From the NCBI GenBank assembly GCA_036396185.1, contig DASWLJ010000138.1:1-38614 (forward strand): a stretch of 38,614 nucleotides of DNA. Reading direction: 5' to 3'. The notes beneath the pieces are model-generated. The model did no database searches. It had not been told where the DNA came from and worked only from the letters and a program-made list of their open reading frames with translations. Both the position numbers and the translations under genes were made by a program. This DNA is from Candidatus Bathyarchaeia archaeon (GTDB lineage: Archaea; Thermoproteota; Bathyarchaeia; TCS64). Below, in pieces: positions 2,907 through 38,614 of this stretch (position 1 is the stretch's first letter; the number at the start of each line of letters is the position of its first letter).

Positions 2907-3065
2907 CGTGTGTTACCGTGTGTTCGGTACCCCAAACTCTGTCAAAACCAGTATTAATCTTTTAGGAGTTGTTTCACACATGAATATGCATGCTCTCAGC
3001 GTACCGTTGATATTTACACGAATAAACATCCATATTCACTATAAGAACGCATCAAAAGAATTCCT

Positions 3066-6017: not shown

Positions 6018-6072
6018 CCTCACCATACATAACGATATACTGTTAACTAGCCGTCATTAACGTGGAATAAAC

Positions 6073-12342: not shown

Positions 12343-12383
12343 GCTGGACAGCTGCTAAATATATCCCAAGCCTATCATTCTCC

Positions 12384-20294: not shown

Positions 20295-21029
20295 TTACGT
20301 GATCACGGCTTCCTTGTTGAACACCGAGAAGCCCCTGTTGGTTATGAGGTATCTTCTGGGCTGCTCATCGAAGCTTGTCCCCCTCATCTTGTCGATACGC
20401 AGTGTCTTCACCAGTTTAAAGTCTATGATCTCCTTTTCTAGAACAAAGACCCCATCTGATAGGAACTGCTCCATGTAGAAGTCGTTGTTGTTGGGTATGC
20501 TCTCAGAGATGATGAGTCCAGTGCACTTCTTCCTCTTGATTGAGTCAAAGATCTGGCCGATCTGGTACCTCTTCGGCCCAGACCTGACCTCGTGGATGAC
20601 GATGCTCGTCAGGGGGTCGATCACGATGTGCTTAGCCTTTATCCGGTCCGCCTCGTCCTCTATCGCCTTTATGATGCCCATCTCTAGTTTCCCATGAACC
20701 CTCTCATAGGGCTCCACTATGCCCCTGGCCTGAGGAATCATGCTGATGTCCAGGACCCCCAGCTTCTTGTCGTCCATGGCCTTCTGGAGGTCCCAACCGA
20801 ACTCCTTCGCGTTCTCTAATTTATCCGGGAAAGACTCTTCCAGCGAGACGTAGACGCATGGCTCGCCTCGGTTGATAGCGGTAACCATGTAGTGTTGCGA
20901 GAATATTGTCTTCCCGGTTCCAGGACCCCCGCATATAAGAATGATTTTACCTTTAGGCACCCCACCCGTAAGCATCTCGTCCAGGCCGGAGACCCCGGTC
21001 AACACTCGGTTCAATCCTTGGCTTGTCAT
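20295..21029 (-). CDS. Single-domain KaiC-like (RecA-superfamily) ATPase
   Basis: RVLTGVSGLDEMLTGGVPKGKIILICGGPGTGKT (Walker A), HIVIDPLTS (Walker B), and a KaiC-like C-terminus (LRIDKMRGTSFDEQPRRYLIT). The track ORF starts at GTG 21086, but a TATA-like box (21088-21100) abuts that codon, so ATG 21029 is more plausible. The gene ends 13 nt before the GH3-like gene. Confidence 0.9.
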   Translation of the reverse strand: MTSQGLNRVLTGVSGLDEMLTGGVPKGKIILICGGPGTGKTIFSQHYMVTAINRGEPCVYVSLEESFPDKLENAKEFGWDLQKAMDDKKLGVLDISMIPQARGIVEPYERVHGKLEMGIIKAIEDEADRIKAKHIVIDPLTSIVIHEVRSGPKRYQIGQIFDSIKRKKCTGLIISESIPNNNDFYMEQFLSDGVFVLEKEIIDFKLVKTLRIDKMRGTSFDEQPRRYLITNRGFSVFNKEAVIT

Positions 21030-21384
21030 AGTGCTGTCGCCCCCCGTCAAGTCACCTATAGAGAATATGTTCTCTTTATTTAACACGTTATTTATACTTT
21101 ATTATCTTTAAGATTTAGGTGTCTATCACGGTGTTGATGTTTTAGGGTAACCGTTTTGTTGATTACCTTTTCTATGGACGTTCAGGTTATCTTATTCGAG
21201 ACAAGCATAGGGACTTAGTTGCGCGCGCTTGCGTTGTACTTGGTCAAGGCCGAAGGCAACGTCTTGATAAAGCTACGGGGGGGAGGCGTCGAGGGCTGGG
21301 GTCAGGGGCTGCTGAGACCTCAGTCTCTGGCAGTCTAGAACCTGGCAGGAGGGCCTCGCATCGATATCGTTCAGGGTAAATATA

Positions 21385-23070: not shown

Positions 23071-24021
23071 TTGAACAGAACAGCCATAATCGCAGTAGCG
23101 ATAATTATCCTGGGTGCGGCAGGGTACGGGTACACCCAGTGGAGCAGACAACAGACAGAGACCATAGCGGTCTCGGGTGCCTTCGCCCTCTACCCGCTGA
23201 TGGTCCAGTGGACGGATGAGTACAGCAGGCTTCACCCCAACATAAAATTCGAGGTCTCGGCAGGGGGGGCAGGCAAAGGCATGACCGACGCCCTCAACCA
23301 GCTGGTAGACCTCGGCATGGTGTCCAGGCAGATCTACCCTGAGGAGGTTCAGAGGGGCGCGTTCTGGGTGGCTGTCGCCACGGACGCCGTGGTGGTGACC
23401 GTGAACGCGGACAACCCTGTCCTCAGCGAGCTCATAAGCCAAGGATTCATAGCCGAGAAGCTGGCCGCCATATACGTGCAGGGCAACTTCACAACGTGGG
23501 GTGATGTCGTCGGCAGGCCCGAGGTTACGGATCCGATTAACGTCTACACGCGGAGCGACGCATGTGGGGCGGCGGCAACATTCGCCGAGTATATGGGATA
23601 CGCGCAAGAGGATCTGCTGGGTGTGGGGGTATACGGCGACCCGGGCCTGGCCGAGGCGGTCAGAGGCGATCCATTCGCCATCGGGTACAATAACGTCAAC
23701 TACGCCTACGACATGAACACTGGGCTGCCCGTGGAGGGGATAGCTGTGGTGCCCCTCGACGTTGACGGCGACGGGAGCATAAGCCAAGCGGAGGACTACT
23801 ACTCGGATAGAGAGAGCATCATAGACGCCATCGCTGATGGGCGCTACCCGTCGCCTCCTTCAAGGGAGCTTAACCTGGTCACTAAGGACGAGTTCAGGGG
23901 GGCCACTCTGGAGTTCATAAGATGGGTTCTGGCGGATGGCCAGGAGATGGCTACGGACGCTGGGTTCGTGCCCCTCTCGCCTGAGCGTAGACAGCAGGAG
24001 ATATCGAAGCTGGGTGGATAA
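23071..24021 (+). CDS. pstS: Phosphate ABC transporter substrate-binding protein
   Basis: 316 aa with a TTG start directly followed by a signal/anchor (NRTAIIAVAIIILGAAG). PstS-type PBP pattern (SGAFALYPLMVQWTDEY...FEVSAGGAGKGMTDA...VDLGMVSR). Confidence 0.92.
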   Translation: MNRTAIIAVAIIILGAAGYGYTQWSRQQTETIAVSGAFALYPLMVQWTDEYSRLHPNIKFEVSAGGAGKGMTDALNQLVDLGMVSRQIYPEEVQRGAFWVAVATDAVVVTVNADNPVLSELISQGFIAEKLAAIYVQGNFTTWGDVVGRPEVTDPINVYTRSDACGAAATFAEYMGYAQEDLLGVGVYGDPGLAEAVRGDPFAIGYNNVNYAYDMNTGLPVEGIAVVPLDVDGDGSISQAEDYYSDRESIIDAIADGRYPSPPSRELNLVTKDEFRGATLEFIRWVLADGQEMATDAGFVPLSPERRQQEISKLGG

Positions 24022-24022
24022 C

Positions 24023-24910
24023 TTGGACCGAGCAAGGGTCGACAGGGCGGCGTGGACCGCGATAAGAGTCCTGGTCCTGTCCTGCGTAGCCCTGCTGCTC
24101 CTCATAGCAGGCGTCCTGTTCAGCAAGTCGATCCCCCTCCTGAGTTCCGTCCCCTTGACGAACCTACTGTTCTCTTCGAAGTGGTTTCCTCTGAGGGGCG
24201 AGTTCGGGTTCATGGCCTTCATAATAGGAACGCTGATGGTCACATTGATGGCTATGCTTCTATCCGTACCCGTGAGTCTTCTCACAGCGATATACCTGTC
24301 GGAGTACGCCTCCACTCGGGTGCGCGACGCGGTTAAGCCACTGATCGATCTGTTGGCGGGCATCCCCTCGGTGATATTCGGCCTCTGGGGTGTCGCCTTC
24401 GTCGTCCCCGCTGTGAGGTACAGCATCGCCCCCCTGTTCGGCGTAAACACGACGGGCTACTGCGTTCTGTCGGCGGGCGTCGTGCTAGCGATCATGGTTT
24501 TTCCTCTCATAATATCGGTGGCCGAGGAGGTCCTCAGGGCAGTCCCCAGTGTCCTCCGGGAGACAGCTTACTCTCTGGGAGCCACGAGGTGGCAGACGGT
24601 AAAGCACGTCGTCCTTAAGGAGGCCAGCGTGGGCGTGCTGGCCTCCGTCATCCTCGGCTTCACGAGGGCGATAGGCGAGACGATGGCAGTGCTGATGGTC
24701 GTGGGTAACGTCGCCCAGGCCCCCAGGACAGTGTTCGACGCGGCGTACCCGCTGCCGTCACTCATCGCCAACAATTACGGTGAGATGATGTCCCTCCCCC
24801 TCTACGACTCGGCCCTAATGTTCGCGGCCCTCGTGCTTCTCCTGGTGGTGGCCGGGTTCACCATATTGGCTAGAACCCTGCCCAGACGTGTGGCGAGGCT
24901 GCAGCAATGA
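24023..24910 (+). CDS. pstC: Phosphate ABC transporter permease PstC
   Basis: An in-frame TTG at 24023 lies 2 nt after the pstS stop; track ORF 23936 overlaps the pstS tail. Motifs: EYASTRVRDAVKPLIDLLAGIPSVIFGLWG and the EAA-type loop AYSLGATRWQTV. Confidence 0.92.
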   Translation: MDRARVDRAAWTAIRVLVLSCVALLLLIAGVLFSKSIPLLSSVPLTNLLFSSKWFPLRGEFGFMAFIIGTLMVTLMAMLLSVPVSLLTAIYLSEYASTRVRDAVKPLIDLLAGIPSVIFGLWGVAFVVPAVRYSIAPLFGVNTTGYCVLSAGVVLAIMVFPLIISVAEEVLRAVPSVLRETAYSLGATRWQTVKHVVLKEASVGVLASVILGFTRAIGETMAVLMVVGNVAQAPRTVFDAAYPLPSLIANNYGEMMSLPLYDSALMFAALVLLLVVAGFTILARTLPRRVARLQQ

Positions 24911-25755
24911 AGCCGAGCGCCATCGAGGAGACCTTCTTCAGGGGCCTGATGATTCTGTCGACGGCGCTGGTGGTGGGCAGCCTGTTAGCCGTCTTTGCCT
25001 TGGTTACCCTCAAGGGCCTCCCAGCCCTCAGCGTAGAGATGATTACACAGACGCCTAAGGGCGGCTACTACATGGGGAAGGAAGGAGGCATCCTCAACGC
25101 CATAGTGGGGTCCCTCTACCTGGCCACGGGCGCGACGGTCCTATCACTCCTGCTGGGGCTTCCGGTCGCCTTCTACCTGACTGAAGTGTGTGGCGACACG
25201 AGGACGGCGAGCAGCTACAGACGCGTACTGGACGTCCTCTGCGGGGTCCCTAGCATCGTCTACGGGGCCTTCGTCTTCACCATCATGATCGTCCTCAGGG
25301 CCAGGGCCAGCCTCCTCTACGGCATCGTCGCCGTGACTCTCTTCGAGTTCCCCCTCATGACGCGGGCCATCGACGAGGTCCTGAAGAAGGTGCCTCAGAG
25401 GCTCAGGGAGACCACCTACGCGCTGGGGGCCACCCGGTGGGAGGTCGCCACGAGGGTTGTGACAAGGCAGGCTCTGCCCGGGGTCCTCTCAGCTGTGCTA
25501 CTATGCTTCGGCAGGGCAATAGGGGACGCGGCCGCTGTACTGCTCACGGTCGGTTACACGGACAACATCCCGACTTCTCTGGGGGACCAGGCCGCGACGC
25601 TGCCACTGGCGGTGTTCTTCCAGCTGGCCACCCCAATGCCCGAGGTGCAGCAGAGGGCTTACGCCTCAGGCATAATACTACTAGTTATAGTCCTAACCCT
25701 GAGCCTCGCCTCCAGGTGGGGCTCACAGAAGCTAACGAGGTACATCAACAGGTGA
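24907..25755 (+). CDS. pstA: Phosphate ABC transporter permease PstA
   Basis: 282 aa. The ATG overlaps the pstC stop (ATGA). Motifs: VLCGVPSIVYGAF, and ETTYALGATRWEV. Confidence 0.92.
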   Translation: MKPSAIEETFFRGLMILSTALVVGSLLAVFALVTLKGLPALSVEMITQTPKGGYYMGKEGGILNAIVGSLYLATGATVLSLLLGLPVAFYLTEVCGDTRTASSYRRVLDVLCGVPSIVYGAFVFTIMIVLRARASLLYGIVAVTLFEFPLMTRAIDEVLKKVPQRLRETTYALGATRWEVATRVVTRQALPGVLSAVLLCFGRAIGDAAAVLLTVGYTDNIPTSLGDQAATLPLAVFFQLATPMPEVQQRAYASGIILLVIVLTLSLASRWGSQKLTRYINR

Positions 25756-25760
25756 CGTGA

Positions 25761-26522
25761 TTGGATTACGAGGAACCGGTGCTGAAAGTCAGGAACCTGA
25801 ACGTCAACTACGGGCAGCTTAGCGCGCTGAAGAACATCAACGTGGACATACCGCGCAGAGGAGTGACGGCTATTCTGGGGCCATCGGGCTGCGGCAAGAC
25901 GACGCTGCTGAAGAGCTTCAACAGACTGGTGGAGCTTAACCCCGAGGCCAAGGTGTCGGGGGAGATAATCCTAGATGGGGTCAACGTCAACAACCCTGAG
26001 TACAACGTGATAGAGCTTAGGAAGAGGGTCGGCATGATCGGGCAGGTCCCCACGCCTCTACCCATGTCCATATACAACAACGTCGCCTTCGGCCCTAGGA
26101 TGCACGGACTAGAAGGCAAGGATACAGCTGTCAACGTTGAGCGGTGCCTGCGCACGGCCGGGCTCTGGGAGGAGGTGAAGGACAGGCTGCGCGAGCCGGC
26201 CAACCGCCTATCCGTTGGCCAGCAGCAGAGGCTGAGCCTCGCCAGAGCCCTCGCCGTGGAGCCCGAGGTACTGCTCTGCGACGAGCCCACGTCCGCCCTC
26301 GACCCCGTCTCAGCTAAGCACGTGGAGGACCAGCTCATGGGCCTGAAGAGGGAGTACAGCATACTCTTCGTGACCCACACGCTGCGGCAGGCAAAGAGGA
26401 TCAGCGACTACGTGCTGTTCATGTACATGGGTGAACTCGTCGAGCACGGGCCAGCGCACAGAATGTTCACCCAGCCCACCGACACCCGGACAAGGGAGTA
26501 CATGGAGGGCGTCATAGGGTAG
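25761..26522 (+). CDS. pstB: Phosphate ABC transporter ATP-binding protein PstB
   Basis: 253 aa with a TTG start. Walker A GPSGCGKTT, signature LSVGQQQRL, Walker B LLCDEPTSALD, and the PstB-specific C-terminus (FTQPTDTRTREYMEG). Confidence 0.96.
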   Translation: MDYEEPVLKVRNLNVNYGQLSALKNINVDIPRRGVTAILGPSGCGKTTLLKSFNRLVELNPEAKVSGEIILDGVNVNNPEYNVIELRKRVGMIGQVPTPLPMSIYNNVAFGPRMHGLEGKDTAVNVERCLRTAGLWEEVKDRLREPANRLSVGQQQRLSLARALAVEPEVLLCDEPTSALDPVSAKHVEDQLMGLKREYSILFVTHTLRQAKRISDYVLFMYMGELVEHGPAHRMFTQPTDTRTREYMEGVIG

Positions 26523-26714: not shown

Positions 26715-27767
26715 TCATGTAAGGACTTTCTTGAAGACCCTGAGGTCGTTGGCCCCCAGTATCTTCTCAATGTCGCTGTCCGAGTAGCCGCGGGCCACCA
26801 TGCCCTCCGTGAGCGTCGGGAACCGTGACACGTCGTCGAGGCCTGGGAACCCGCAGCCTCCGTCCAAGTCGCTGCCGATGCCCACGTGGCCAGTGCCTAC
26901 GAGCCCCACGGCATGGTCCAGGTGGTCGAGCCAGTCGTCTACCGTGACCTTCTTGAGGGCCTCAGGGTCGCCGAAGCCTACGCCATCCTTGATGAAGCCG
27001 CCGCAGAAGCTGAGGTTCATGACTCCGCCGTTTTCGGCTAGAGCCTTGATCTGGTCGTCTGTGAGGTTCCTGTGGTGGCCGCAGAGGGCCTTGCAGTTGC
27101 TGTGGGTGGCTATGACAGGGTCCTCTGTGAGCTTCAGGACGTCCCAGAACCCAGTCTGGTTGATGTGGCTCACGTCCACGATCATGCCGAGCCTGTTCAT
27201 CTCCTGGACCACTTCTCGGCCGAACTCTGTCAGGTGGCTGCCCGAGTCGGCGCCCGAGCCGTCTCCCAGCTCGTTTCTGGGGAAGTGGGTGAGAGTCATG
27301 CTCCTAACCCCGAGTCTGTACGCTGTCCTCAGTGCCTCTATGCTGCCCTCCAGGGGCTCCCCGCCCTCGATGGTGATCACCGCTGCGACCTTACCTTCTT
27401 TAACGGCTTTAATGATCTCACGGTGAGTGGTGGCGAGAGCCATCTGGTCCGTGTTCTTCTCAAGCTCCGCGTGGAACGCGTCCAGCATCTGGACCAGGCG
27501 GCGCAGCCGCGCCACATACAGGGGGCTGACGTACATGGCGAAGAGGAGGCAGTCCACTCCGCCCTCCCGTATGCGCGGTATATCGATCTGCCCGTGCCCC
27601 GTTCGTTCACCCAGCGTCCGCCGAGGCGGAAGTGGCTCCGAGCCCGAGGTGCAGAACGGGGGCGCCTTGATGAGGTGGAGTACGGTGTCGTTGTGGGTGT
27701 CCACGACCAGTGATGACCCGTGGATGGCCTTAGCCCTGGCCATCTGATCCTTGGTCAAGTTAAACAT
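26715..27767 (-). CDS. M19 (renal-type) membrane dipeptidase family
   Basis: Motifs: VVDTHNDT, LTHFPRNELGDG, VDVSH, ATHSNC, IGSDLDG. The track ORF starts at TTG 27830. ATG 27767 (MFNLTKDQ...) lies 24-31 nt downstream of a TATA-like box and is preferred. Confidence 0.92.
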   Translation of the reverse strand: MFNLTKDQMARAKAIHGSSLVVDTHNDTVLHLIKAPPFCTSGSEPLPPRRTLGERTGHGQIDIPRIREGGVDCLLFAMYVSPLYVARLRRLVQMLDAFHAELEKNTDQMALATTHREIIKAVKEGKVAAVITIEGGEPLEGSIEALRTAYRLGVRSMTLTHFPRNELGDGSGADSGSHLTEFGREVVQEMNRLGMIVDVSHINQTGFWDVLKLTEDPVIATHSNCKALCGHHRNLTDDQIKALAENGGVMNLSFCGGFIKDGVGFGDPEALKKVTVDDWLDHLDHAVGLVGTGHVGIGSDLDGGCGFPGLDDVSRFPTLTEGMVARGYSDSDIEKILGANDLRVFKKVLT

Positions 27768-27790
27768 GGTTACGTTGTTGCTGTCCATGG

Positions 27791-27798
27791 ATATATCA
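27791..27798 (-). promoter_or_regulatory. TATA-like box for the dipeptidase gene
   Basis: atatatca on the + strand (tgatatat on the coding strand) lies 24-31 nt upstream of ATG 27767, consistent with a leaderless transcript. Confidence 0.35.
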
Positions 27799-27943
27799 GG
27801 ATCGAGACACCGCCGCCGAGTCCACAACACTGGACGTCGTGTATTGTTACCATGGGATTCCAGCGTATTCCGTAGAGGGCTGTTTCCCTAGAATCTGTAG
27901 TATATGGATACGTATTGTAAGTAGAGACCGGGTTTCCACGGAG

Positions 27944-28397: not shown

Positions 28398-28997
28398 TTG
28401 CACAGTAAACGAGGCATGACGGGGCTGGAGACGGCCATCATCCTGGTAGCTTTCGTTATCACGGCGGCCGCCTTCGCGTTCGTCGTGCTAAACATGGGTT
28501 TCCTCACGGCGGAGAAGGCGCAGTCTGTGATCAGCTCAGGCATGGCCGAGGCCAGCTCATCCATCCTCATGGACAGCGGCCTCATCGCCCAGTTCAACAA
28601 CACGGGCGGGGCCCAGGCCGATGTAAGGCTCCTGAAGGCAACCTTCTACCTGAAGTTGAGCCAGGGCCACGAGCCAGTGGACATGAGCGACGACAAGCTA
28701 GTGGCCACCTACACTAACGTGAGGTGCCACGGCGAGATCTACGCCAGCAACGGCACCATCATGACCATCAAGGGCGTGAACAGCGACGGCGACAGGCTAC
28801 TCGAGACTGGTGAGAAGGTCAGGGTCACAATCGACTTCACAGCAATAGACGCGGCTGAAATGGACCCCACGGGGGCCGACGTGTACGCTCACCCATACGA
28901 GGAGTTCAGGATCGAGCTGAGGCCCTCCATGGGGGCGGTGCTGACCATCGAGAGGCAGCTGCCGGCAGTGTACACCACCATAATGACGATAGATTAA
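28398..28997 (+). CDS. arlB: Archaellin (archaeal flagellin)-family protein with class III signal peptide
   Basis: 199 aa with a TTG start. The N-terminus MHSKRG|MTGLETAIILVAFVITAAAFAFVVLNMGFLTAEKAQSVISSGMAEASSS closely follows the crenarchaeal-type archaellin N-terminal domain (compare the Sulfolobus FlaB pattern ...KG|LAGLDTAIILIAFIITASV...). The start is ambiguous: ATG 28416 lies about 25 nt downstream of aataaa. Confidence 0.85.
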   Translation: MHSKRGMTGLETAIILVAFVITAAAFAFVVLNMGFLTAEKAQSVISSGMAEASSSILMDSGLIAQFNNTGGAQADVRLLKATFYLKLSQGHEPVDMSDDKLVATYTNVRCHGEIYASNGTIMTIKGVNSDGDRLLETGEKVRVTIDFTAIDAAEMDPTGADVYAHPYEEFRIELRPSMGAVLTIERQLPAVYTTIMTID

Positions 28998-29569: not shown

Positions 29570-30619
29570 TCAACCTTTGTTTGTGGGTTTACTCCTCTCA
29601 GATTCTATCCTGTAAAGTGTTGATGTGACGTACATGGCTATGGTTTCAAGGAGCCTATGCTCACGATACCTGAAGGGGTTGAGCCTGTTACTCTGTACGT
29701 GTAGGAACGCGACGATCTCTCCATGCGTCTTTATCGGCACCATTAGCTCTGTTCTTATCAAGGGGACGTCCTCCTCCTGTGGCTGCTCCGGGGTAGCTCT
29801 ACCCTCCACATCGAAGGAGGTTCTCCCTATCTTCACCATTCTCCAGGTTACGCCCGTCTCGTCCAGCGACAAGCTCCAGTCGTGAGGAAGCGTAGCATTC
29901 TTCGGGAGAGTGAATAAGAACCGGAAGTTACTGTTCTCCACCACCCCAAAGCCGATCTGGTTAAAGACCATGACCTTTGAAATAGTTATCACAGTCGTTT
30001 TAGCCACGTCTTCGATTGACTTAGCGTCCTCTAAGTCGTGCTGATATTTGTACAGGAGGTCGATGAGAGCTCGCTCACTCTGAGGAATAATGTTTGCCTC
30101 TTTCTGGATCTCCAGAACTATCCTGTAGTTGAATGACTCTATGATGTTCAGCTTCACCTTGAGCAAACCTTCAAGGAAACCATAGATGAAGTAAGGGCTC
30201 GAGAAGATGGGTTTGGTAATAATTATTTTGTCGTTTTCAAGTGTAAAGAAGCCCCAGCCAAACAGCTTGCTCAAGTCACGGAGTATCTTCTGCGTGAATG
30301 CTTCCTCTAACAGATCGCTTTCCTCGTAGCGTAGGCTCACCCTGGCCATGCGGCCCATCTCCTGACCGGCCTCGTAGAGCTTACGATCCTCGAACTGGCT
30401 GAAACAAAAGTTGATGGTCTCGGACATGAATAGTCCAACCCTGTACTGGTTGATCCAGAATGATCCTTCCTCCCACCTGTCCAGCGAGTAGTACTCGTAG
30501 CGGTCCATGACTCTGTTGAAGAACTCCTCTAGGGATAACCCTGAGCTGCGAATTTTCTCTCTGCGTTCCTCCGATAGAAACAGGGTTGCCCTGACCTTCC
30601 GATCAGTTCTATCGTCCAT
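29570..30619 (-). CDS. Putative ligand-sensing regulator: RHH-like N-terminus, V4R-like domain, C-terminal GAF-like domain
   Basis: 349 aa. KVRATLFLSEERREKIRSSGLSLEEFFNRVMD fits a ribbon-helix-helix. ...LFGWGFFTLENDKIIITKPIFSSPYFIYGFLEGLL fits the V4R pattern. The C-terminus is GAF-like (ELMVPIKTHGEIVAFLHVQSNRLNPFRYREHRLLETIAMYVTSTL). Confidence 0.75.
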   Translation of the reverse strand: MDDRTDRKVRATLFLSEERREKIRSSGLSLEEFFNRVMDRYEYYSLDRWEEGSFWINQYRVGLFMSETINFCFSQFEDRKLYEAGQEMGRMARVSLRYEESDLLEEAFTQKILRDLSKLFGWGFFTLENDKIIITKPIFSSPYFIYGFLEGLLKVKLNIIESFNYRIVLEIQKEANIIPQSERALIDLLYKYQHDLEDAKSIEDVAKTTVITISKVMVFNQIGFGVVENSNFRFLFTLPKNATLPHDWSLSLDETGVTWRMVKIGRTSFDVEGRATPEQPQEEDVPLIRTELMVPIKTHGEIVAFLHVQSNRLNPFRYREHRLLETIAMYVTSTLYRIESERSKPTNKG

Positions 30620-30640: not shown

Positions 30641-30712
30641 TTTATTTAAATCTAATGGGGTTTTACGCATGATTGCGCAATAATGAGTAAAAATGTGTGA
30701 ACTTTTATATAG
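30641..30712. promoter_or_regulatory. Divergent promoter region: two TATA-like boxes flanking a 10-nt palindrome
   Basis: tttatttaaa (30641-30650) lies 22-31 nt upstream of the minus-strand ATG at 30619. ttttatatag (30703-30712) lies 22-31 nt upstream of the plus-strand ATG at 30734. The perfect palindrome attgcgcaat (30672-30681) sits between them. Confidence 0.45.
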
Positions 30713-30733: not shown

Positions 30734-31291
30734 ATGTCTGATGACCAGGCATTCATTGCACAGAAGAAACCATGGTGGTACATGTCTGCGCGGCAGATCG
30801 GCGTAGCGGCTGCTTTTTCCGGCATGGCTCTAGCCATCACACTTACCCACATAGTTGTACCAATCCCTGGCCTACCTGGTGGCGGCGGCATGGACCCTTC
30901 GGAGATCATCAGGGCGATTGGTGCTGCTCTCGGCGGTCCCTCGGTAGGGCTAGTGATAGGTCTATTCGGCTCGGTGTCCTCGATAAGTAACGTAGTCACC
31001 CATATACCTGCAGTAGTCTTCATTGGCTGGATCTACAAACGCATTTACTCTTACCCTAAGACAAAGAGAATGATCTACTGGCTGATATCGATAGCAGTTT
31101 ACTACTACATCGGTCTCGTTCCTCTGATAGCCCTTACTACCAGTATACAGTACTTTAAGGGGCTGGACATGTTCGTCCCAATGATAGTGGCCGTAGCTCC
31201 GGGGATTTCACCCGAATTTGTGGTCACTGCAATAGTTACGACAATCATCTGGGGCGCCCTCCCCGAGAAGTACACCAAGCCTCTGTGGTAA
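30734..31291 (+). CDS. Small 5-6 TM membrane protein, likely ECF-transporter S (substrate-capture) component
   Basis: 185 aa of Gly-rich TM helices (IGVAAAFSGMALAITLTHIVV, IIRAIGAALGGPSVGLVIGLFGSV, ...). Size and topology are typical of S components, and it is the first gene of an operon that also encodes an ECF-type A-A' ATPase and T component. Substrate class not recognisable. Confidence 0.6.
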   Translation: MSDDQAFIAQKKPWWYMSARQIGVAAAFSGMALAITLTHIVVPIPGLPGGGGMDPSEIIRAIGAALGGPSVGLVIGLFGSVSSISNVVTHIPAVVFIGWIYKRIYSYPKTKRMIYWLISIAVYYYIGLVPLIALTTSIQYFKGLDMFVPMIVAVAPGISPEFVVTAIVTTIIWGALPEKYTKPLW

Positions 31292-31293
31292 AC

Positions 31294-32688
31294 ATGACCA
31301 CTGATGCCGAAGCACCCCTTTTTATTAAAAATTTACTAGAGCGTAGACGAACAGATTTCTTCGATGTACGCTTCCAGAGAACCACAAGCACCGTAATTCA
31401 GATCCTGGACAGTGAGCCTACGCAGGCCAGTCAGTATACAGTCTCCGGGGTAGGGGTTAGGGTTCTTAGGAACGGACTATGGGGTTTTTCCTCAACAAGC
31501 GAACTGGACCAGGAGAGTCTGAGATCAACCTGCATTAAAGCCCTGAAATCAGCTAGAACAGGTAAACGGAGAAGGATAAAATTTCCCGAGATGAAAGCCG
31601 TAACAGGAGAGCACATCATTAAACCTGAGCTGGACCCCCTAGATGTGCCCCTACAGGACAAGTTGGACCGGCTTATAGGCTTTGAGGAGCTCATCAAGGG
31701 CTCCGACAGTCGGGTGAAGTCGACCCAAGTAAGGTACAGTGACTCAGTTGAGGAAGTCACAATAGTCAATTCAGAGGGCTCCAGCGTAGCCATGTCTCAG
31801 CCCCGGGTGGACATAGGCTTCAACGTGGTCGCCAACGACGGGAAGATGTCTCAGCACACGAGAGGAAGGGAGGCCACGCTCGGCGGCTGCGAGTTCCTAG
31901 AGAACCCTGTATTGAATGAGACGGCCCTGAACACCGCCAAGAGGGCATTAGACCTCTTGGAGGCTAAGCAGGCCCCCTCCGGTAGGTCAACGGTGGTGAT
32001 GGACCCGTCTGTGGCCGGTCTCTTCCTGCATGAAGCCTTCGGCCACTCAGCTGAGGCGGACTCCGTCCTCCAGGGGAGGTCGTTTCTGGCGGGCATGATC
32101 GGTGAGGCAGTGGCATCCGAGTTCGTCACAGTGTACAGCGACCCCACGATGGCTGGAAACCCCGGCTCCTACCCCTTCGACAGCGAGGCTGTCCCGGCCG
32201 TTAAAACCAGCCTCATAGAGGGAGGTGTCTTTAAAACGTATATGCACAGCAGGTCTACGGCGGCGGCTTACGGGATCAAGTCCACGTCCAACGCCAGGGC
32301 CGAGGACTATGGAAAGCCCCCCATTGTACGGATGAACAACCTCTACTTCAAGCCAGGCGGATCCACCTTAGAAGAAATAATAGGCGAGACCAAGAGCGGC
32401 GTATACCTCGTTAGCGGAGGCGGCGGCATGGAGGACCCTGAGAAGGGCCGCTTCCAGTTCTCTGTTCAGAACTGCTACGAGATAGTTGACGGCGAGATAG
32501 GTTCACCGCTCAGAGGCACATCGCTGTCGGGCTGGACCATAGAGACCATGCGGAGCATAGACATGCTAAGCAGGGATCTCTCGATTGACTTGGGGAGCTG
32601 CGGCAAGGGAGAACCCCTGATGCAGATTCTGCCGGTCGCAAACGGGGGCCCGTACATCCGGGTGAACAACGTTCTCCTCGGAGGGTAA
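31294..32688 (+). CDS. tldD: TldD-type metalloprotease subunit
   Basis: About 464 aa (ATG 31294; the track start GTG 31285 overlaps the upstream stop). It has the HExxxH motif in TldD context (FLHEAFGHSAEADSV) and a C-terminal Gly-rich PmbA_TldD pattern (GVYLVSGGGGMEDPEKGRFQFSV...). Confidence 0.93.
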   Translation: MTTDAEAPLFIKNLLERRRTDFFDVRFQRTTSTVIQILDSEPTQASQYTVSGVGVRVLRNGLWGFSSTSELDQESLRSTCIKALKSARTGKRRRIKFPEMKAVTGEHIIKPELDPLDVPLQDKLDRLIGFEELIKGSDSRVKSTQVRYSDSVEEVTIVNSEGSSVAMSQPRVDIGFNVVANDGKMSQHTRGREATLGGCEFLENPVLNETALNTAKRALDLLEAKQAPSGRSTVVMDPSVAGLFLHEAFGHSAEADSVLQGRSFLAGMIGEAVASEFVTVYSDPTMAGNPGSYPFDSEAVPAVKTSLIEGGVFKTYMHSRSTAAAYGIKSTSNARAEDYGKPPIVRMNNLYFKPGGSTLEEIIGETKSGVYLVSGGGGMEDPEKGRFQFSVQNCYEIVDGEIGSPLRGTSLSGWTIETMRSIDMLSRDLSIDLGSCGKGEPLMQILPVANGGPYIRVNNVLLGG

Positions 32689-32691
32689 GCC

Positions 32692-34089
32692 ATGTTGAAC
32701 GTCAACAACTTGATCCAGAGCCTGGACTTAGCCGAGTACGGTGTCCAGTATGCTCAGGCCAAGGGGGCTGAACACGCGGAGCTCTTCGTCTCGTCGGAAC
32801 ACTCCCAGAGAGCCCAGGTGGAGAAAGGCAAAACCTCCGTGATACAGAGCGTCACGGACTCCGGGGCCTTCATACGGCTCATAAAAAACGGCTACCTGGG
32901 AAGCGTAGTGTTCACCCAGCTTTCCAAGCAGGGGGTCACCGAGGCCGTTGAGACCGCAGTCAAACTCGCCAAAGTCATGCACACGGCCCAGGCAAGCTTC
33001 CCCGAGCCCCGCGGAGCCCAGGGCATCCACGTAAACGTGGACAGGAAGCTGGACCAGCTGCAGCCTGGGGACATCTACGAGTTCTCAAGGACCATGATCG
33101 AGTCCGTGAAGGAGAGCGGCTCAAAGGTGATGGCTACGGACGGTCTGTTCTCTTCCACCATCACCTCCATGGCCGTGGCCAACTCCAACGGCGTATCCGT
33201 GGCCGACGCCGGCTCGAAGCTCATAGTGAGTATGAGAACCAAGGCGAGGAAAACGGTGAACTGGGGGAGCGGGTACGAGTACCGGGTCGAGCCCAGCCTC
33301 AGGTACGTTGATCCTGAGGACGTTGGGAGAAAATCGGCCGAGCTTTCTCTAAGTTCTGTGAAGAAGAAGCGAATCAAGGCTGGCGATTACCCTGTAATAT
33401 TCGAGCCCCACGCGTTCGCGGACCTGGTTAAGTCTCTGCTAGTGCAGGCCGCGTTGGGCGTAAACATCGAGAAGAACGCGTCGTTTCTCTCCGGCAGGCA
33501 GGGGTCCGAGGTGGCCGACGCAGACTTCAGCCTGTATGATGAGGGCTTCTGCCACCGGGGCGCAAACAGGGGCTACGTGGACCACGAGGGCACCCCTATG
33601 CAGAGGACCCCGATAATAGAGAAAGGCGTATTCAAGGAGCCGCTCTACGACCACGCCTCGGCGGTGAGGGTAGGCAAGGCAAGCACAGGCAACGGGGTGC
33701 GCTTCTTCCTCCCAATCTACGATAGGCTCTACCGTTTCGTCCCCACGGTTGAGGGCACCAACCTCGTGGTTAAAAACGGAGGCTCAACGAGGGACGAGAT
33801 GATCGAGGGCGTGAAGGACGGCCTCCTCGTCACCTTCCTGGTCGGGTCTTGGTCCTTCAACTACGCCGATGGTAGCTTCTCGGCTGAGGCGCGCAACTGC
33901 TTCAAGATCGAGCGAGGCGAAGTAGCCTACGCAGTGGACGAGGCCACGGTCTCGGGGAACATCATGGAGCTGGTCAAGGGGCTACAGATAGGGGACAACC
34001 CACTGCAATCAAGGGGTTACGTGCCCCTCACGCCCTCCACCGTAATCACTCCCACGGTGAAGGCCGAAAATATAAGGATAGGAGCATGA
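32692..34089 (+). CDS. pmbA: PmbA/TldE-type partner subunit (no HExxxH)
   Basis: 465 aa, starting 4 nt after the tldD stop. PmbA_TldD family pattern (GLLVTFLVGSWSFNYADGSFSAEARNCFKIERGEV...) without the zinc motif. Confidence 0.9.
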   Translation: MLNVNNLIQSLDLAEYGVQYAQAKGAEHAELFVSSEHSQRAQVEKGKTSVIQSVTDSGAFIRLIKNGYLGSVVFTQLSKQGVTEAVETAVKLAKVMHTAQASFPEPRGAQGIHVNVDRKLDQLQPGDIYEFSRTMIESVKESGSKVMATDGLFSSTITSMAVANSNGVSVADAGSKLIVSMRTKARKTVNWGSGYEYRVEPSLRYVDPEDVGRKSAELSLSSVKKKRIKAGDYPVIFEPHAFADLVKSLLVQAALGVNIEKNASFLSGRQGSEVADADFSLYDEGFCHRGANRGYVDHEGTPMQRTPIIEKGVFKEPLYDHASAVRVGKASTGNGVRFFLPIYDRLYRFVPTVEGTNLVVKNGGSTRDEMIEGVKDGLLVTFLVGSWSFNYADGSFSAEARNCFKIERGEVAYAVDEATVSGNIMELVKGLQIGDNPLQSRGYVPLTPSTVITPTVKAENIRIGA

Positions 34090-34098
34090 TATGGTAAG

Positions 34099-35829
34099 AT
34101 GACAGAACCCGACATAACATTCGAGAACTTCTCGTTCTCCTACGAGGAGACCAAGGAGCCGGCCCTGAAGAACATCAACCTCAGGATCAAGAAGGGTGAA
34201 GTGGTGCTCGTAACTGGGCCAGCGGGAGCAGGCAAGAGCACCCTCTGCTGCTGCATAAACGGGCTAATACCCCACTTCTACAGCGGCAAGATCGAGGGAA
34301 AGATCCTCGTCAAAGGCGTCGACACCCAAGCCCTGACCATAGGGCAGCTAAACACCCAGGTCGGCCTGGTCTTCCAGGACCCCGAGAGCCAGCTCTTCAA
34401 CTTCACGGTGGAGGACGAGATCGCCTTCGGCCCCGAGAACTTGGGCATCGAGCCAGACAAGGTAAACGCACTCGTGGACGAGATGATCAGGAGGGTCAGG
34501 CTAGAGGGATACAACAAACGCAACCCACTGACCCTTTCAGGTGGGGAGAAACAGGCGTGCGCCATAGCCAGCATACTGGCCATGAGCCCCAACATAGTCA
34601 TATTCGATGAGCCGACGTCCAACCTCGACCCCATAGGGACCCAGAGCGTCCTCCAACTGATCACGGACCTCGCCAAACGGGAGAAGAAGACCATGATCAT
34701 AGTCGAGCACAACCTGGCCGACCTGGTAACCAAGGTGGACCGCATGATAGTCATGCAGGACGGCGGGATACTCTTCGACGACTCGCCGAAAGAGGTGTTC
34801 AGACATGTCGACAAGTTGAAGGAGATAGGCGTAAACATACCCCAGTCCACCCAGCTACTACTGAGACTGAGTGAGGCCAACCTGGTCCCCTCAGAGACCT
34901 GCATGACCATGAACGAGGTCTACGAGTTCATCTCCTCGAAGCTGGATGCAACAAGGTTTGAGAAGGCCAAGACCTACATCCTGGAGAAGGAGGAGGCGCC
35001 AGCAGGCACCGAGCCTATAATTGTCGTGGATAATCTGACTCACCTGTACCCCGAGGGCAACGTCGAGGCCTTGAGGGGAGTCAACCTCAAGGTATACCCT
35101 GGGGACTTCATGGCGATAATCGGGCAGAACGGCTCAGGTAAGACCACCCTGGTGAAGCACTTCAACGGGCTGCTGAAGCCGACCACGGGCAAGGTGTACG
35201 TGAAAGGCGTGGACACGAGCACATCGACGGTCGCCAAGCTGGCCAGGACAGTGGGATACTGCTTCCAGAACCCGGACCACCAGATAGTTAAGAACGTGGT
35301 GAGGGAGGAGATAGCTTTCGGCCCCAAGAACCTCGGTGTACCGGACGACGAGATAGAGAAGAGGATCGAGGAGATCACGACCAAGCTCAACATACACAAG
35401 TACTTGGATGAGGACCCTCACGAGCTCAGCAAAGGCAACAAGGCAAGGGTGAACCTCGCCGGCGTCCTAGCCATGAAGCCCGACGTCCTTATAGTGGATG
35501 AGCCCCTGACGGGCCAGGACTTCAAGGAGGCCAAGGCCATCATGGACCTACTGATGGACTTGAACAGGGAGGGCAAGACCATCATAATAATCACCCATGA
35601 GATGATGTTCGCCGCCGAGTACACGCGGAGGATCATAGTCATGAACAAGGGGGCCATGCTGTATGAGGGTACGCCCAAGCAGGTGTACACCAAGAAGGAC
35701 ATCCTTGAGGCGACCAGTCTCACGGAGCCCGAGATCACCCAGCTTGGCTTCAAGCTTTGCGGTGTCCCCGACATCACCACAATCGACGAACTCTATAACA
35801 TCATAGCGGGGAAGGAGGTGACTGGCTGA
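34099..35829 (+). CDS. ecfA: Fused double-NBD ECF/CbiO-type ABC ATPase (EcfA-EcfA')
   Basis: 576 aa. NBD1: GPAGAGKST, LSGGEKQ, VIFDEPTSNLD, VEH. NBD2: GQNGSGKTT, degenerate signature LSKGNKA, LIVDEPLTGQD, ITH. The N-terminal FSY...ALKNINL pattern is typical of ECF ATPases. Confidence 0.95.
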   Translation: MTEPDITFENFSFSYEETKEPALKNINLRIKKGEVVLVTGPAGAGKSTLCCCINGLIPHFYSGKIEGKILVKGVDTQALTIGQLNTQVGLVFQDPESQLFNFTVEDEIAFGPENLGIEPDKVNALVDEMIRRVRLEGYNKRNPLTLSGGEKQACAIASILAMSPNIVIFDEPTSNLDPIGTQSVLQLITDLAKREKKTMIIVEHNLADLVTKVDRMIVMQDGGILFDDSPKEVFRHVDKLKEIGVNIPQSTQLLLRLSEANLVPSETCMTMNEVYEFISSKLDATRFEKAKTYILEKEEAPAGTEPIIVVDNLTHLYPEGNVEALRGVNLKVYPGDFMAIIGQNGSGKTTLVKHFNGLLKPTTGKVYVKGVDTSTSTVAKLARTVGYCFQNPDHQIVKNVVREEIAFGPKNLGVPDDEIEKRIEEITTKLNIHKYLDEDPHELSKGNKARVNLAGVLAMKPDVLIVDEPLTGQDFKEAKAIMDLLMDLNREGKTIIIITHEMMFAAEYTRRIIVMNKGAMLYEGTPKQVYTKKDILEATSLTEPEITQLGFKLCGVPDITTIDELYNIIAGKEVTG

Positions 35830-36677
35830 TGGCCGTATTCATCGTGGGCAAGTCCTACTGGTATACTCTGGACCCTCGGGCCCGGGTCCTCTTCCTCATA
35901 GGCGTGTTCCTGGCGGCCTTCGCCTTCGACGATCCCATTCTTCTCTTCGTAGGTAACGTGTTGCTGATAACGTTCATCGTCCGCAACGAGCTTCCCCTGA
36001 AAAAGCTGTTCGGCTTGGTCAAGCCTCTGACATTCACCATGATAATATACATACTGATCACGGTACTCTGGATTAACCCGACGCCGGCGCAGTACAGGCT
36101 CCAGCCATTCATGTACCTGTGGCCCCAAGGGAACATGTTCCCGATAGACGCGGGGACTCTGCTATACTTGGTCGGCATAATTGAGAGGGTGTACATCATG
36201 ACCATCTCGGCGTGGTTTGTGACGATAACGCTGACGCCGCCCGAGCTGGTGTCGGCCCTGACGAAGTGGAGGCTGCCTCCCTCATTCGCGGTGGCCGGTG
36301 CAGCCAGCTTCGCCTCCCTACCCTTCTTCCAGTCCCTCATCGAGACCATAAAGGAGGCTCTCCAGTCGAAGGGGTGGGAGACGGAGCAGAAGGGCCTCAT
36401 GGGCACCATAAGGTCCTTCGTACCCATACTTTTCCCAGTCTTCTTCATGACGCTGAAGAGGTCCCAGGGACTGGCGCTGGCCATGGAGTGCAGGGGGATA
36501 AGCCAGATCGAGAAGAGGAAGCCCCGTAAGCAGCTAAAGTACACGGGCAGAGACTGGGTTTTCACCTTGTTCATCGTTGGTCTCGGCGTGTCCTGCCTTG
36601 TGCTCTACTACGGGTACGGCATAGGGTCAGTGAACATCACGATTGAGATGCTGAAGTCGATGGGCATCATCACCTGA
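35829..36677 (+). CDS. ecfT: ECF transporter T component (CbiQ family)
   Basis: 282 aa, polytopic. The ATG overlaps the ATPase stop (TGATG). It has the conserved Ala-Arg-Gly-type coupling helix region (LKRSQGLALAMECRGI). Confidence 0.88.
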   Translation: MAVFIVGKSYWYTLDPRARVLFLIGVFLAAFAFDDPILLFVGNVLLITFIVRNELPLKKLFGLVKPLTFTMIIYILITVLWINPTPAQYRLQPFMYLWPQGNMFPIDAGTLLYLVGIIERVYIMTISAWFVTITLTPPELVSALTKWRLPPSFAVAGAASFASLPFFQSLIETIKEALQSKGWETEQKGLMGTIRSFVPILFPVFFMTLKRSQGLALAMECRGISQIEKRKPRKQLKYTGRDWVFTLFIVGLGVSCLVLYYGYGIGSVNITIEMLKSMGIIT

Positions 36678-36707
36678 TTTTCTTTATTGTGTGGAGGTTG
36701 ACGGTGA

Positions 36708-37601
36708 TTGGTTAAGACAAACAAGGATAGGCTCCTAGAGCTGAACGTGATGGGGGAGGTTAACCACCCGCAGCTGATAGGAGGGAGAAGCTACATCACT
36801 ACATGGGATGGGCGCCCTAAGCTCTCCATGGGCTACGGAGGGATAAACTACAGTGTGAAGGTGGGTGACCCCGTCTTCGGGTGGGAGGAGGCCGACCACG
36901 CTGAGCCCGGGGTGTCGGTGAGCAACAAGGACTCCGGCTCCAACAACGCGCTCTGCTCCTACTCGTGCATAGGCAACGAGTCGCTGGTGCTCAGCGGGGA
37001 TGCAAAGGGCAGCCTGGGCACCGTGACAGGCAAATCGGGATACGTCACGATGCCTGACAGCGTCCTAGTCCACTTCGATGGGGAGACACTGCAGAAGCTG
37101 GCGATAGGCGACAAGGTCCAGGTCCGGACGAGGGGGCTGGGGCTCAAAGTAGAGGGCTTCGACCACGTCAAGGTATACGGATTGGACCCGGCGCTCCTGG
37201 AGAAGATGAGTGTCAGGGAAGGCGGCGGCCACCTCAAAGTGCCGGTGTCAATGGTTGTGCCCCCCCACCTCATGGGCCAGGGGGTCGGCGAACGGCCCAC
37301 TGAGTTCGGTTACTGGTGCATACAGACCACGTGCCCCCAGTCAGTTGAGGAAAACGGTCTCAGACGCCTTAGGATAGGCGACGTGGTCGCTCTCCTTGAC
37401 CAGTACTGTGGTTATGGTAGAGGCTACCTCAGGGGGGCTATGACCATAGGTGTGGTTATTCACGGGGCCAGCGACATAGCAGGCCACGGCCCAGGGGTCA
37501 ACCCAGTCATCACATGCAGGAGTGGGGAGGTTGTACCGAGGATAGACTCCGGGGCTAACATAGCGAGATACCTGGCGCTCAGGAAGGACCTTGGGTGGTA
37601 G
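36708..37601 (+). CDS. Uncharacterised conserved protein, paralog 1 (length and sequence reminiscent of DUF4438; unverified recollection)
   Basis: 297 aa with a TTG start preceded by GGAGGT. Soluble, Gly-rich (…VGDPVFGWEEADHAEPGVS…DQYCGYGRGYLRGAMTIGVVIHGASDIAGHGPGVNPVITCR…). Roughly half of the residues look identical to the next gene by eye. Confidence 0.85.
   Translation: MVKTNKDRLLELNVMGEVNHPQLIGGRSYITTWDGRPKLSMGYGGINYSVKVGDPVFGWEEADHAEPGVSVSNKDSGSNNALCSYSCIGNESLVLSGDAKGSLGTVTGKSGYVTMPDSVLVHFDGETLQKLAIGDKVQVRTRGLGLKVEGFDHVKVYGLDPALLEKMSVREGGGHLKVPVSMVVPPHLMGQGVGERPTEFGYWCIQTTCPQSVEENGLRRLRIGDVVALLDQYCGYGRGYLRGAMTIGVVIHGASDIAGHGPGVNPVITCRSGEVVPRIDSGANIARYLALRKDLGW
37398..37520 (+). repeat. 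Near-identical DNA tract shared by the two tandem paralogs (copy 1)
   Basis: My manual alignment with 38273-38395 shows the first 59 nt identical, 93 of the first 95 identical, and 115 of 123 overall. The rest of the two genes differs at many synonymous sites. Confidence 0.9.
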
Positions 37602-38467
37602 CGTTGATCGAGACGAACAAGGAGAAGCTGCTAAAAGTCGCGGTCATGGGCGAGATAGTTCACCCCATGGGGAGAAGGTTCTACAGCACGACCTGGGATG
37701 GCTCAACCAAGGTCAGCCTGGGGATGGATGGGATCACCTACAACGTGAGGGTGGGTGACCCGGTCTTCGGGTGGGCCTCGGCGGACCACGTGGAGCCCGG
37801 CGTATCACTGGTCAACAAGAACGAGGCCTACGACGTGGCCTTCGGAACCCTGTCCTGCATAGGAAACGAGGCCAAGGTGGTCTCAGGTGAAGCGAAGGGC
37901 TCACTGGGCTACGTCACGGGTAAACACTCCAACCTGCTAGCTTGGTTCAGGGACGAGGACATAGCGAAGATGGCCATAGGGGACAAGGTGCAGGTCAAGG
38001 TCTGGGGGGTAGGGCTCAAGATACACGGTTTCGACGACGTGAAAGTCGAGAAGATCGACCCCGAGCTCCTCGAATCCATGGGGATCACAGCTGAGAAAGG
38101 CAGGCTGGTGGTGCCTGTTGCCAAGGAGCTCCCGGCCTACATCATGGGGTCAGGCATCGGCCACTGGCCCATGGCGGAGTACGTGGACTACGACATCCAG
38201 ACGACCTGCCCGGAGGCCATCAGTGAGCTGGGGCTCGAGGATCTGCGGCTGGGAGACGTCGTTGCCTTGCAGGACCAGTACTGTGGTTATGGTAGAGGCT
38301 ACCTCAGGGGGGCTATGACCATAGGTGTGGTCATTCACGGTGCCAGCGACATAGCAGGCCACGGCCCGGGCGTTAACCCCGTCATCACGTGCAGAGCCAG
38401 TGAGGTTGTGCCGCAGATAGACGCCTGGGCTAACATAGCGAGATACCTGGGCATAGGAGGCGGGTGA
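37595..38467 (+). CDS. Uncharacterised conserved protein, paralog 2 of the preceding gene
   Basis: 290 aa. GTG 37595 overlaps the upstream stop by 7 nt. The alternative start TTG 37604 aligns with the paralog 1 N-terminus (IETNKEKLL versus VKTNKDRLL). Confidence 0.85.
   Translation: MVALIETNKEKLLKVAVMGEIVHPMGRRFYSTTWDGSTKVSLGMDGITYNVRVGDPVFGWASADHVEPGVSLVNKNEAYDVAFGTLSCIGNEAKVVSGEAKGSLGYVTGKHSNLLAWFRDEDIAKMAIGDKVQVKVWGVGLKIHGFDDVKVEKIDPELLESMGITAEKGRLVVPVAKELPAYIMGSGIGHWPMAEYVDYDIQTTCPEAISELGLEDLRLGDVVALQDQYCGYGRGYLRGAMTIGVVIHGASDIAGHGPGVNPVITCRASEVVPQIDAWANIARYLGIGGG
38273..38395 (+). repeat. Near-identical DNA tract shared by the two tandem paralogs (copy 2)
   Basis: See copy 1. Both copies encode the identical 41-aa segment DQYCGYGRGYLRGAMTIGVVIHGASDIAGHGPGVNPVITCR. 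Confidence 0.9.
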
Positions 38468-38471
38468 ACCC

Positions 38472-38614
38472 TTGGAGATAGTAAACGTAAACAGGATTAA
38501 GAAGACGAAGCTGGGCGGAGATCATGGTGGAGCCCTATTCCAGCGGGCTCTGGGTAGGGGAACAGATAAGCCGGACCTCATGATGTCGATGCGGGGGGTC
38601 TCAAGGATCACGGT
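38472..38614 (+). CDS. 5' end of a further same-strand ORF running off the window (unknown function)
   Basis: A TTG 5 nt after the previous stop opens a frame with no stop to the window end: (M)EIVNVNRIKKTKLGGDHGGALFQRALGRGTDKPDLMMSMRGVSRIT... It is too short for a family call. Confidence 0.3.
   Translation, partial: MEIVNVNRIKKTKLGGDHGGALFQRALGRGTDKPDLMMSMRGVSRIT

Follow-up and report, generated by a model that had tools for sequence, protein, structure and literature searches.

We analysed a stretch of 38,614 nucleotides from a Candidatus Bathyarchaeia archaeon (TCS64; assembly GCA_036396185.1, contig DASWLJ010000138.1, positions 1-38,614 of the forward strand), hereafter called the window, in which a run of tightly packed genes reaches from position 30734 past the window end. 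By sequence, this run encodes a dedicated, group-I-like importer of the energy-coupling factor (ECF) type, which consists of a substrate-binding S-component of a new family, a fused EcfA-A' ATPase and the membrane scaffold EcfT. The other genes are predicted to encode cytoplasmic amide-bond hydrolases of the TldD/TldE and the N-terminal nucleophile (Ntn) type, an aminotransferase resembling branched-chain aminotransferases (BCAT), a cupin and two DUF4438 proteins. The genes are as follows, the last two being located on an overlapping contig of the Joint Genome Institute (JGI), L001:

30734..31291, (+), 185 amino acids (aa): S-component of a new family, assigned from fold and gene context
31285..32688, (+), 467 aa: TldD-type zinc metalloprotease subunit, predicted to be the catalytic one; three PmbA_TldD domains
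32692..34089, (+), 465 aa: TldE/PmbA-type partner; three PmbA_TldD domains
34099..35829, (+), 576 aa: fused EcfA-EcfA' ATPase; TIGR04520, TIGR04521 and two ABC_tran domains
35829..36677, (+), 282 aa: EcfT (CbiQ-type) transmembrane scaffold; PF02361
36708..37601, (+), 297 aa: DUF4438 paralog A (TM1086 family); PF14505 and PF20999
37595..38467, (+), 290 aa: DUF4438 paralog B, 61% identical to A; PF14505 and PF20999
38472 (TTG)..38614, partial, (+), 117 aa in full: cupin, cut by the window end; L001 4455-4808
L001 4825-5682, operon strand: BCAT-like class IV aminotransferase
L001 5698-6705, operon strand: Asparaginase_2-type Ntn hydrolase, last gene of the operon

According to the list of open reading frames (ORFs), seven complete genes and one partial gene occupy the plus strand from 30734 to the window end, in the order 185-aa membrane protein, TldD, TldE, fused EcfA-A', EcfT, DUF4438 A, DUF4438 B and cupin, with gaps of -7, +3, +9, -1, +30, -7 and +4 nt from 5' to 3'. 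The initial annotation of this DNA had described the same gene order, the same-strand run and gaps between -7 and +30 nt, and the possible ninth gene that it listed as a partial ORF is real, namely the cupin gene continuing off the window. The continuation could be read from L001 (15.3 kb), which encodes a protein identical to paralog A and matches the window in 4586 of 4597 overlapping bases (99.8%). On this contig the cupin gene is completed and followed on the same strand by the aminotransferase and the Ntn hydrolase genes. The gene after these has the opposite orientation, and the Ntn hydrolase gene is followed by an oligo-T stretch and a hairpin. Hence, we count ten genes, and their packing behind one promoter region makes them appear as a single, regulated operon. 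A scan of the window for tRNA and Rfam elements gave no match.

The energising part of the importer is recognised by curated models. The fused ATPase obtained 521.6 bits with TIGR04520 (cut-off 315) and 509.4 bits with TIGR04521 (cut-off 330), and EcfT obtained 69.5 bits with PF02361 (cut-off 25). In contrast, EcfT remained below the cut-off of TIGR02454 (49.6 versus 111.8 bits), and we therefore do not regard it as the cobalt-specific CbiQ. The stop codon of the ATPase gene overlaps the start codon of ecfT in the sequence TGATG. The fused A-A' ATPase and the CbiQ/EcfT-like protein were correctly named at the outset.

The first gene was assigned from the predicted structure of its product and from its gene context. 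The AlphaFold2 model of the 185-aa protein (predicted local distance difference test, pLDDT, 89.8; predicted template modelling score, pTM, 0.82) was compared with the PDB using Foldseek, and ranks 1-19 were all ECF S-components (ThiT, RibU, PanT, 4hzu_S, BioY and FolT), with probabilities of 0.87-1.00 (mostly ~1) and template modelling (TM) scores of 0.42-0.69. From rank 20 the values dropped sharply to probabilities <0.3 and TM scores of ~0.3 or less. The gene context points in the same direction. Among the 51 metagenome loci of the S family with at least 1.5 kb of downstream sequence, 40 encode a fused full-length EcfAA' downstream on the same strand. Its gene begins 80-200 nt behind the S gene, the protein shares 40-45% identity with the EcfAA' of the window, and a CbiQ-type T gene comes next.

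At the sequence level, the relatives of the protein are of two kinds. A sequence search of the PDB was empty, and the only trace in Pfam was PF07694 (5TMR-LYT) with an E value of 0.075 and 13.1 bits compared to a cut-off of 24.6. A word-indexed search gave five close homologs, and a profile search among 1.84 billion cluster representatives gave 136 relatives; the family motifs read PIPG...DP(S/R)E...P(E/R)(K/R)Y(T/R)(K/R)PLW. Many of these relatives represent the N-terminal membrane module of HAMP-PAS-HisKA-HATPase sensor kinases of 600-2000 aa. The profile of the S family matches such kinase N-termini with E values down to 9e-24, and the kinase-fused relatives share the motifs PIPGT..DPRE and PRRYRRPLW. 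When 50 family members were compared with Pfam at E<=0.01, 38 of them matched PF07694, 13 matched PF12822 and 6 matched PF07155. One standalone S-like relative (L089) was found among HAMP-GAF, FIST and PAS signalling genes.

A structural link between the S-component fold and 5TMR sensor domains was published in 2024 (PMC11109136). Partipilo & Slotboom named the residues of helix 1 as the discriminator of S-components and 5TMR kinases, the AxxxA (small-xxx-small) motif of this helix serving the docking to EcfT (PMC11109136). In the window protein, helix 1 contains the small residues G23, A26, A27, G30 and A34, which are arranged as G23xxxA27 and A26xxxG30xxxA34. Each of the 48 ECF-linked relatives has Gly or Ala at these five positions, whereas the 44 relatives of kinase length have I, L, V or F. 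Furthermore, the protein is standalone with nothing following the last helix, and with a score below the gathering cut-off of PF07694, no kinase or signalling fusion and a helix 1 that is not bulky, it does not qualify as a sensor domain of this family. Because of the fold, the gene context and the helix-1 residues, a transport role is favoured for this protein. The initial annotation had predicted an S-component-like first gene; the profile models did not support it, but the top 19 PDB fold matches and the linkage to ECF genes did, and on the predicted model and its gene context the protein is confirmed as an S-component. With its family genomically coupled to EcfAA' and EcfT, the proposal of an ECF-type transporter operon is sustained.

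The two protease genes, which had been placed between the genes for the S-component and the ATPase with HEAFGH as the TldD motif, were verified by domains and motif. They are separated by 3 nt, and each product exceeded the cut-offs of PF01523, PF19290 and PF19289. TldD matched E. coli TldD (5nj5_A) with an E value of 6.6e-60; the alignment pairs HEAFGH with HEAVGH and GSCGK with GVCGK, so by this comparison the metal ligands (HExxxH and the C-terminal Cys) are kept. The translation of TldE contains no HExxxH, and its PDB matches were 6j6a, 1vl4 and 5nj5_B (PmbA). As the scores of TldD did not reach the NCBIfam equivalog cut-offs (NF040952, 321.8 versus 635 bits; NF008006, 219 versus 513 bits), we regard it as a divergent paralog in the family. 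Our literature search found no description of a TldD/E pair between ECF S and ATPase genes and nothing on function for TldD with ECF or for Bathyarchaeota with TldD, in agreement with the initial annotation, which knew of no described system of this kind.

The two tandem paralogs, uncharacterised in the initial annotation, both belong to DUF4438, with the N- and C-terminal domains of this family detected at E values of 1e-37 to 1e-43. Paralog A matched the crystal structures of TM1086 (3dcl/3n99) with an E value of 1.2e-63 and ~43% identity along the entire length; on 3dcl, the model superimposed with a TM score of 0.88. The family is large (>2,386 clusters at 90% identity), and our literature search for DUF4438 and TM1086 found nothing on function. 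Its conserved polar residues are D54, E66, C87, N90, K100, D135, K136, D225, D231, S/C255, H260 and N284. In 24 tandem pairs, H260 and C87 were kept in the downstream copy without exception (24/24), while the upstream copy was without H260 in 12 and without C87 in 4 cases, a pattern that suggests a heteromer of an active and a degenerate subunit. Both A and B of the window keep H260 and C87. The last ~180 nt of the two genes (37410-37590 versus 38280-38455) show ~93% DNA identity with 80% of the synonymous third positions identical, compared to ~50-65% in the remainder, which indicates a recent partial gene conversion. The conserved stretch with S255 and H260 falls within this tract, which is absent from the pair of the related JGI contig L006, while L009 has a similar one at codons 90-120. 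The JGI annotation starts paralog B 9 nt later.

Among the genes completed by L001, the aminotransferase scored 236.5 bits with TIGR01122 (cut-off 245.6), and its best PDB matches were archaeal BCATs (5mqz, E 2e-69). The Ntn hydrolase resembles the beta-aspartyl peptidase (NF007589, E 1.5e-40, below cut-off). We also considered D-amino-acid or racemised peptides as substrate on account of the class IV aminotransferase; this idea was rejected because the enzyme is BCAT-like, with 145 bits for TIGR01121.

Upstream of the operon, 114 nt separate the S gene from a divergent gene, and this region contains the likely control elements:

29570..30619, (-), 349 aa: putative regulator, divergent from the operon; C-terminal domain GAF-like
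30643..30650, (-): TATA-like box TTTAAATA, located 24-31 nt before the start codon of the regulator gene
30661..30692: 32-bp palindrome TTTTACGCATGATTGC/GCAATAATGAGTAAAA between the two divergent TATA-like boxes; candidate operator
30704..30711, (+): TATA-like box TTTATATA, located 23-30 nt before the ATG of the S gene

The palindrome is built from two 16-nt arms with 88% complementarity and no spacer. It occurs once in the window, and 100 shuffles gave 0 matches. The motif TTTAWATA has 4 matches in the 38.6-kb window against an expectation of 0.66. Two of these enclose the palindrome, and no further match was found inside the operon (30734-38614). The box at 30704-30711 is likely the promoter of the operon, from which a leaderless or near-leaderless transcript would start, since each TATA-like box is located ~24-30 nt from its start codon as fits leaderless archaeal transcripts. 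The regulator had been initially described as an RHH-V4R-GAF protein. Its divergent position was confirmed, but the GAF part is only borderline (GAF_2, 26.9-28.1 bits compared to a cut-off of 28.6), and neither RHH nor V4R was detected even at E<=10, including scans of the N-terminal and middle segments alone. A sequence search of the PDB gave no relative. By its GAF-like domain the protein would probably be responsive to a ligand.

The arrangement is conserved in related genomes. The regulator and all ten genes occur in the same order in L006 and in L008, a metagenome-assembled genome assigned to the Bathyarchaeia by GTDB, with amino-acid identities to the window of ~54-86% per gene; beyond the regulator gene the similarity ceases, and the sequences on either side of the block are unrelated. 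On four short contigs (L090-L093) the part from the regulator over S to TldD is present. In all of these the regulator gene has kept its divergent position; the operon TATA-like box is conserved in the relatives. L008 and L090-L093 have also conserved the palindrome, which in L006 is recognisable. The more distant sister loci of the S family (30-40% identity) contain S, AA' and T genes without TldD/E, and in 21 of them (L088, L108 and 19 others) a gene for an FmdA/AmdA amidase comes next, which suggests that the substrate of this ECF system is a small amide compound. Some of these 21 loci additionally encode an Amidohydro_3 enzyme or an S9/S15 peptidase. Conservation of the neighbourhood was therefore seen for the whole block with its regulator in L006 and L008, but the insertion of TldD/E is restricted to a single clade.

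The neighbourhoods of DUF4438 give a more varied picture. Among 79 GTDB loci with DUF4438, the full gene set was found in one (L008). The distant Bathyarchaeia locus L057 is without ECF genes and has the order TldD (32% identical), TldE (25%), DUF4438A, DUF4438B; here the protease pair is located between a proteasome alpha-subunit gene and the DUF4438 genes (1373-6993). Such a proteasome gene occurs in the DUF4438 neighbourhood of 12 Bathyarchaeia loci and directly adjoins the pair, in divergent orientation, in L062 (9173-11531), which may be no more than synteny or may indicate a connection with protein turnover. In 14 loci, mostly from Bacillota, a long S9/PD40 peptidase is encoded; in most of them its gene immediately precedes DUF4438, and two M20 peptidases and a membrane module of four genes (DUF6754 and three unannotated membrane proteins) are encoded nearby. 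On L001, this DUF6754 module recurs ~5 kb downstream of the operon, together with an S9 peptidase that is shorter, and in L003 the module lies between two DUF4438 pairs. This module may be a transporter and a more general partner of DUF4438. Co-occurrence of the module, an S9 peptidase and DUF4438 was seen in L001 (8641-12958), L003 (277-10953) and L052 (7912-17634), and module and DUF4438 are found together in Bathyarchaeia-type contigs as well as in Bacillota (Fermentithermobacillaceae). The ECF A, A' and T genes beside DUF4438 in L023 and L058 were not counted as independent support; they are convergent and adjoin genes of glycerol catabolism.

Further peptide or amide hydrolases are encoded in the window upstream of the operon:

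124-1437, (-): M28 peptidase
12267-14117, (+): gamma-glutamyltranspeptidase
14476-15438, (-): FmdA/AmdA amidase
26715-27830, (-): M19 membrane dipeptidase

These genes fit a peptide-scavenging lifestyle. Other window genes are located at 3066-7461(+), 8113-9993(+), 20295-21086(-), 23071-26522(+) and 28398-28997(+). They include two PKD-domain proteins (983 and 462 aa), a protein with MgtE_N and CARDB, a KaiC-like ATPase, a Pst-type phosphate ABC transporter (PBP_like_2, two permeases and ATPase) and an archaellin-like protein. The G+C content varies between 0.42 and 0.62 along the window.

How can these observations be combined? We consider it somewhat probable that the genes form a substrate-inducible operon for the uptake and breakdown of a peptide- or amide-like compound in a Bathyarchaeia-type archaeon. 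The initial proposal of an uptake-and-processing or salvage pathway for a peptide-like substrate is thereby partly supported. The S-component would capture a small peptide-like or amide-linked compound, which the ECF module would import by the usual toppling mechanism. Inside the cell, TldD/E and the Ntn hydrolase would cleave the compound, possibly together with the DUF4438 proteins, which carry a conserved Cys/His/Asp set and would probably act as an A/B hetero-oligomer. The aminotransferase could then channel the freed amino acids into metabolism, and the divergent GAF-like protein would bind the 32-bp palindrome and switch the operon in response to a small-ligand signal. We infer the type of substrate from three observations, namely the several types of hydrolases in the operon (TldD/E, the Ntn enzyme of beta-aspartyl-peptidase type and possibly DUF4438), the tie between the S family and the FmdA/AmdA amidase in the sister clade, and the peptidases that DUF4438 keeps as neighbours in other phyla.

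Several points weigh against this reading. We know of no described ECF transporter that imports peptides, and the S family is without a known substrate. The 185-aa protein was not matched by any S-component model of Pfam or NCBIfam, PF12822 and PF07155 included, and the literal AxxxA pair of helix 1 reads A27...M31 in the clade of the window compared to A27...A31 in 40 of the 48 ECF-linked relatives. The DUF4438 model matched in the PDB by Foldseek only TM1086 and hence offers no functional analogy, and the BCAT-like aminotransferase belongs to a common housekeeping type. Moreover, TldD/E between S and AA' was seen only in close relatives, i.e. in one Bathyarchaeia clade, and DUF4438 is found near TldD/E or ECF genes in just three lineages among ~80 loci. 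Since the insertion is limited to a clade and the DUF4438 link is rare, the functional link between these genes may be of recent or accidental origin.

The last points would also be expected from a mosaic operon, in which the ECF module imports an ordinary micronutrient (vitamin, cofactor precursor or metal), while the enzyme genes were inserted or juxtaposed and are co-transcribed without a shared pathway. To our knowledge, all characterised ECF substrates are micronutrients, and one homolog of the 185-aa protein is even named 'riboflavin transporter FmnP' by JGI. The sister loci do without TldD/E, and most Bathyarchaeia carry the DUF4438 pair near housekeeping genes (proteasome alpha subunit, TiaS) without ECF genes. 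However, the FmdA/AmdA gene ending 21 sister loci ties the S family to amide hydrolysis in a second, independent arrangement, several types of hydrolases share the one operon, and its ten overlap-packed genes travel as one block with the regulator. Hence, we regard this explanation as rather unlikely, though as the foremost rival.

Two other explanations concern single parts of the operon. The kinship with the N-terminal domains of the large HAMP-PAS-HisKA-HATPase kinases, the PF07694 matches of most analysed family members and the one standalone relative among signalling genes would suit a 185-aa protein that acts as a membrane sensor ('transceptor') and signals substrate availability, as its kinase-fused relatives would. 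Nevertheless, it stands alone as first gene of an operon with a complete ECF module, EcfAA' directly follows the S gene in 40 of 51 relatives, and its small helix-1 residues are of the ECF-coupled and not of the bulky kinase-fused type, which makes a sensor role improbable. Still harder to reconcile with the locus is a cluster for the maturation and export of a ribosomal peptide, with TldD/E as leader peptidase and the ABC ATPases for export or immunity. TldD/E are known to process microcin B17, and ABC ATPases are indeed encoded here, but the gaps of -7 to +30 nt are too small for a precursor-peptide gene, no YcaO or McbBCD-like enzyme was among the Pfam and NCBIfam matches of the operon proteins, the ATPase and T component are of genuine ECF types, which are importers, and the remaining genes are catabolic. 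We consider this highly implausible.

The uptake-and-breakdown operon can also be formulated in a far-reaching version, which we regard as unlikely as a whole. It would be the first ECF-type importer for a peptide- or amide-linked substrate that shares one transcript with its own degradation machinery; DUF4438 would be a new Cys/His-type hydrolase working as an active/degenerate A/B heteromer alongside TldD/E, and the S family would form a direct sequence-level bridge from ECF S-components to 5TMR sensor kinases. If an ECF system is indeed wired to amide-bond hydrolases, the substrate range of these transporters, so far regarded as micronutrient importers, would widen, and such a coupling would fit the proposed role of Bathyarchaeia in the degradation of detrital protein in sediments. 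The operon is also the first contextual functional lead for DUF4438/TM1086, which comprises thousands of proteins and is represented by a crystal structure but has no assigned function. Furthermore, S relatives that are either ECF-coupled or kinase-fused, with a predictable difference in helix 1, provide a concrete and testable case for the evolution from transporter to receptor ('transceptor') that has recently been proposed.

Compared with known systems, the families of ECF A/A' and T, TldD/TldE and DUF4438 are already established, whereas an S family with close sequence relatives that are either ECF-coupled or kinase-fused, an ECF importer coupled to hydrolases with a clade-specific TldD/E insertion, and the contextual lead to DUF4438 function are new. 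As comparators we used the group I ECF systems BioMNY and CbiMNQO and the structures of ThiT (4tkr/3rlb), RibU (5kbw/3p5n), PanT (6zg3), 4hzu_S, BioY (4dve) and FolT (4huq/5d0y). Like group I systems, the operon combines S, A/A' and T, its ATPase and T component pass curated models, and its S-component has the six-helix fold. It differs from them in an S family that has no Pfam or NCBIfam model and has 5TMR-type sensor domains as nearest sequence relatives, in the fusion of A and A', in the protease pair between the S and A genes, and in linked genes that encode hydrolases instead of vitamin or metal enzymes. With the 5TMR-LYT kinases (LytS, BtsS, YpdA; PF07694), the S-component shares the membrane fold and clear sequence homology, but it is standalone, linked to ECF genes, has small residues in helix 1 and stays below the PF07694 cut-off. 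The protease pair resembles E. coli TldD/TldE (PDB 5NJ5) in its adjacent genes, the three-domain architecture and the restriction of HExxxH and GxCGK to TldD, yet here TldD is divergent and the two genes form part of a transporter operon. TM1086 of Thermotoga maritima (3DCL, 3N99) has ~43% full-length identity and a fold in close agreement with the model; in contrast to it, two tandem paralogs are present here, and in other lineages the upstream copy is often without H260 and C87. Peptidase genes within peptide-importer operons are known from E. coli iaaA-gsiABCD and B. subtilis dppA-dppBCDE, iaaA encoding an isoaspartyl peptidase of the Asparaginase_2 type. As in the present operon, an importer and an intracellular peptidase share one transcript there, and the iaaA type is that of the last gene of this operon; unlike it, these systems employ a binding-protein-dependent type I ABC transporter and have neither TldD/E nor DUF4438.

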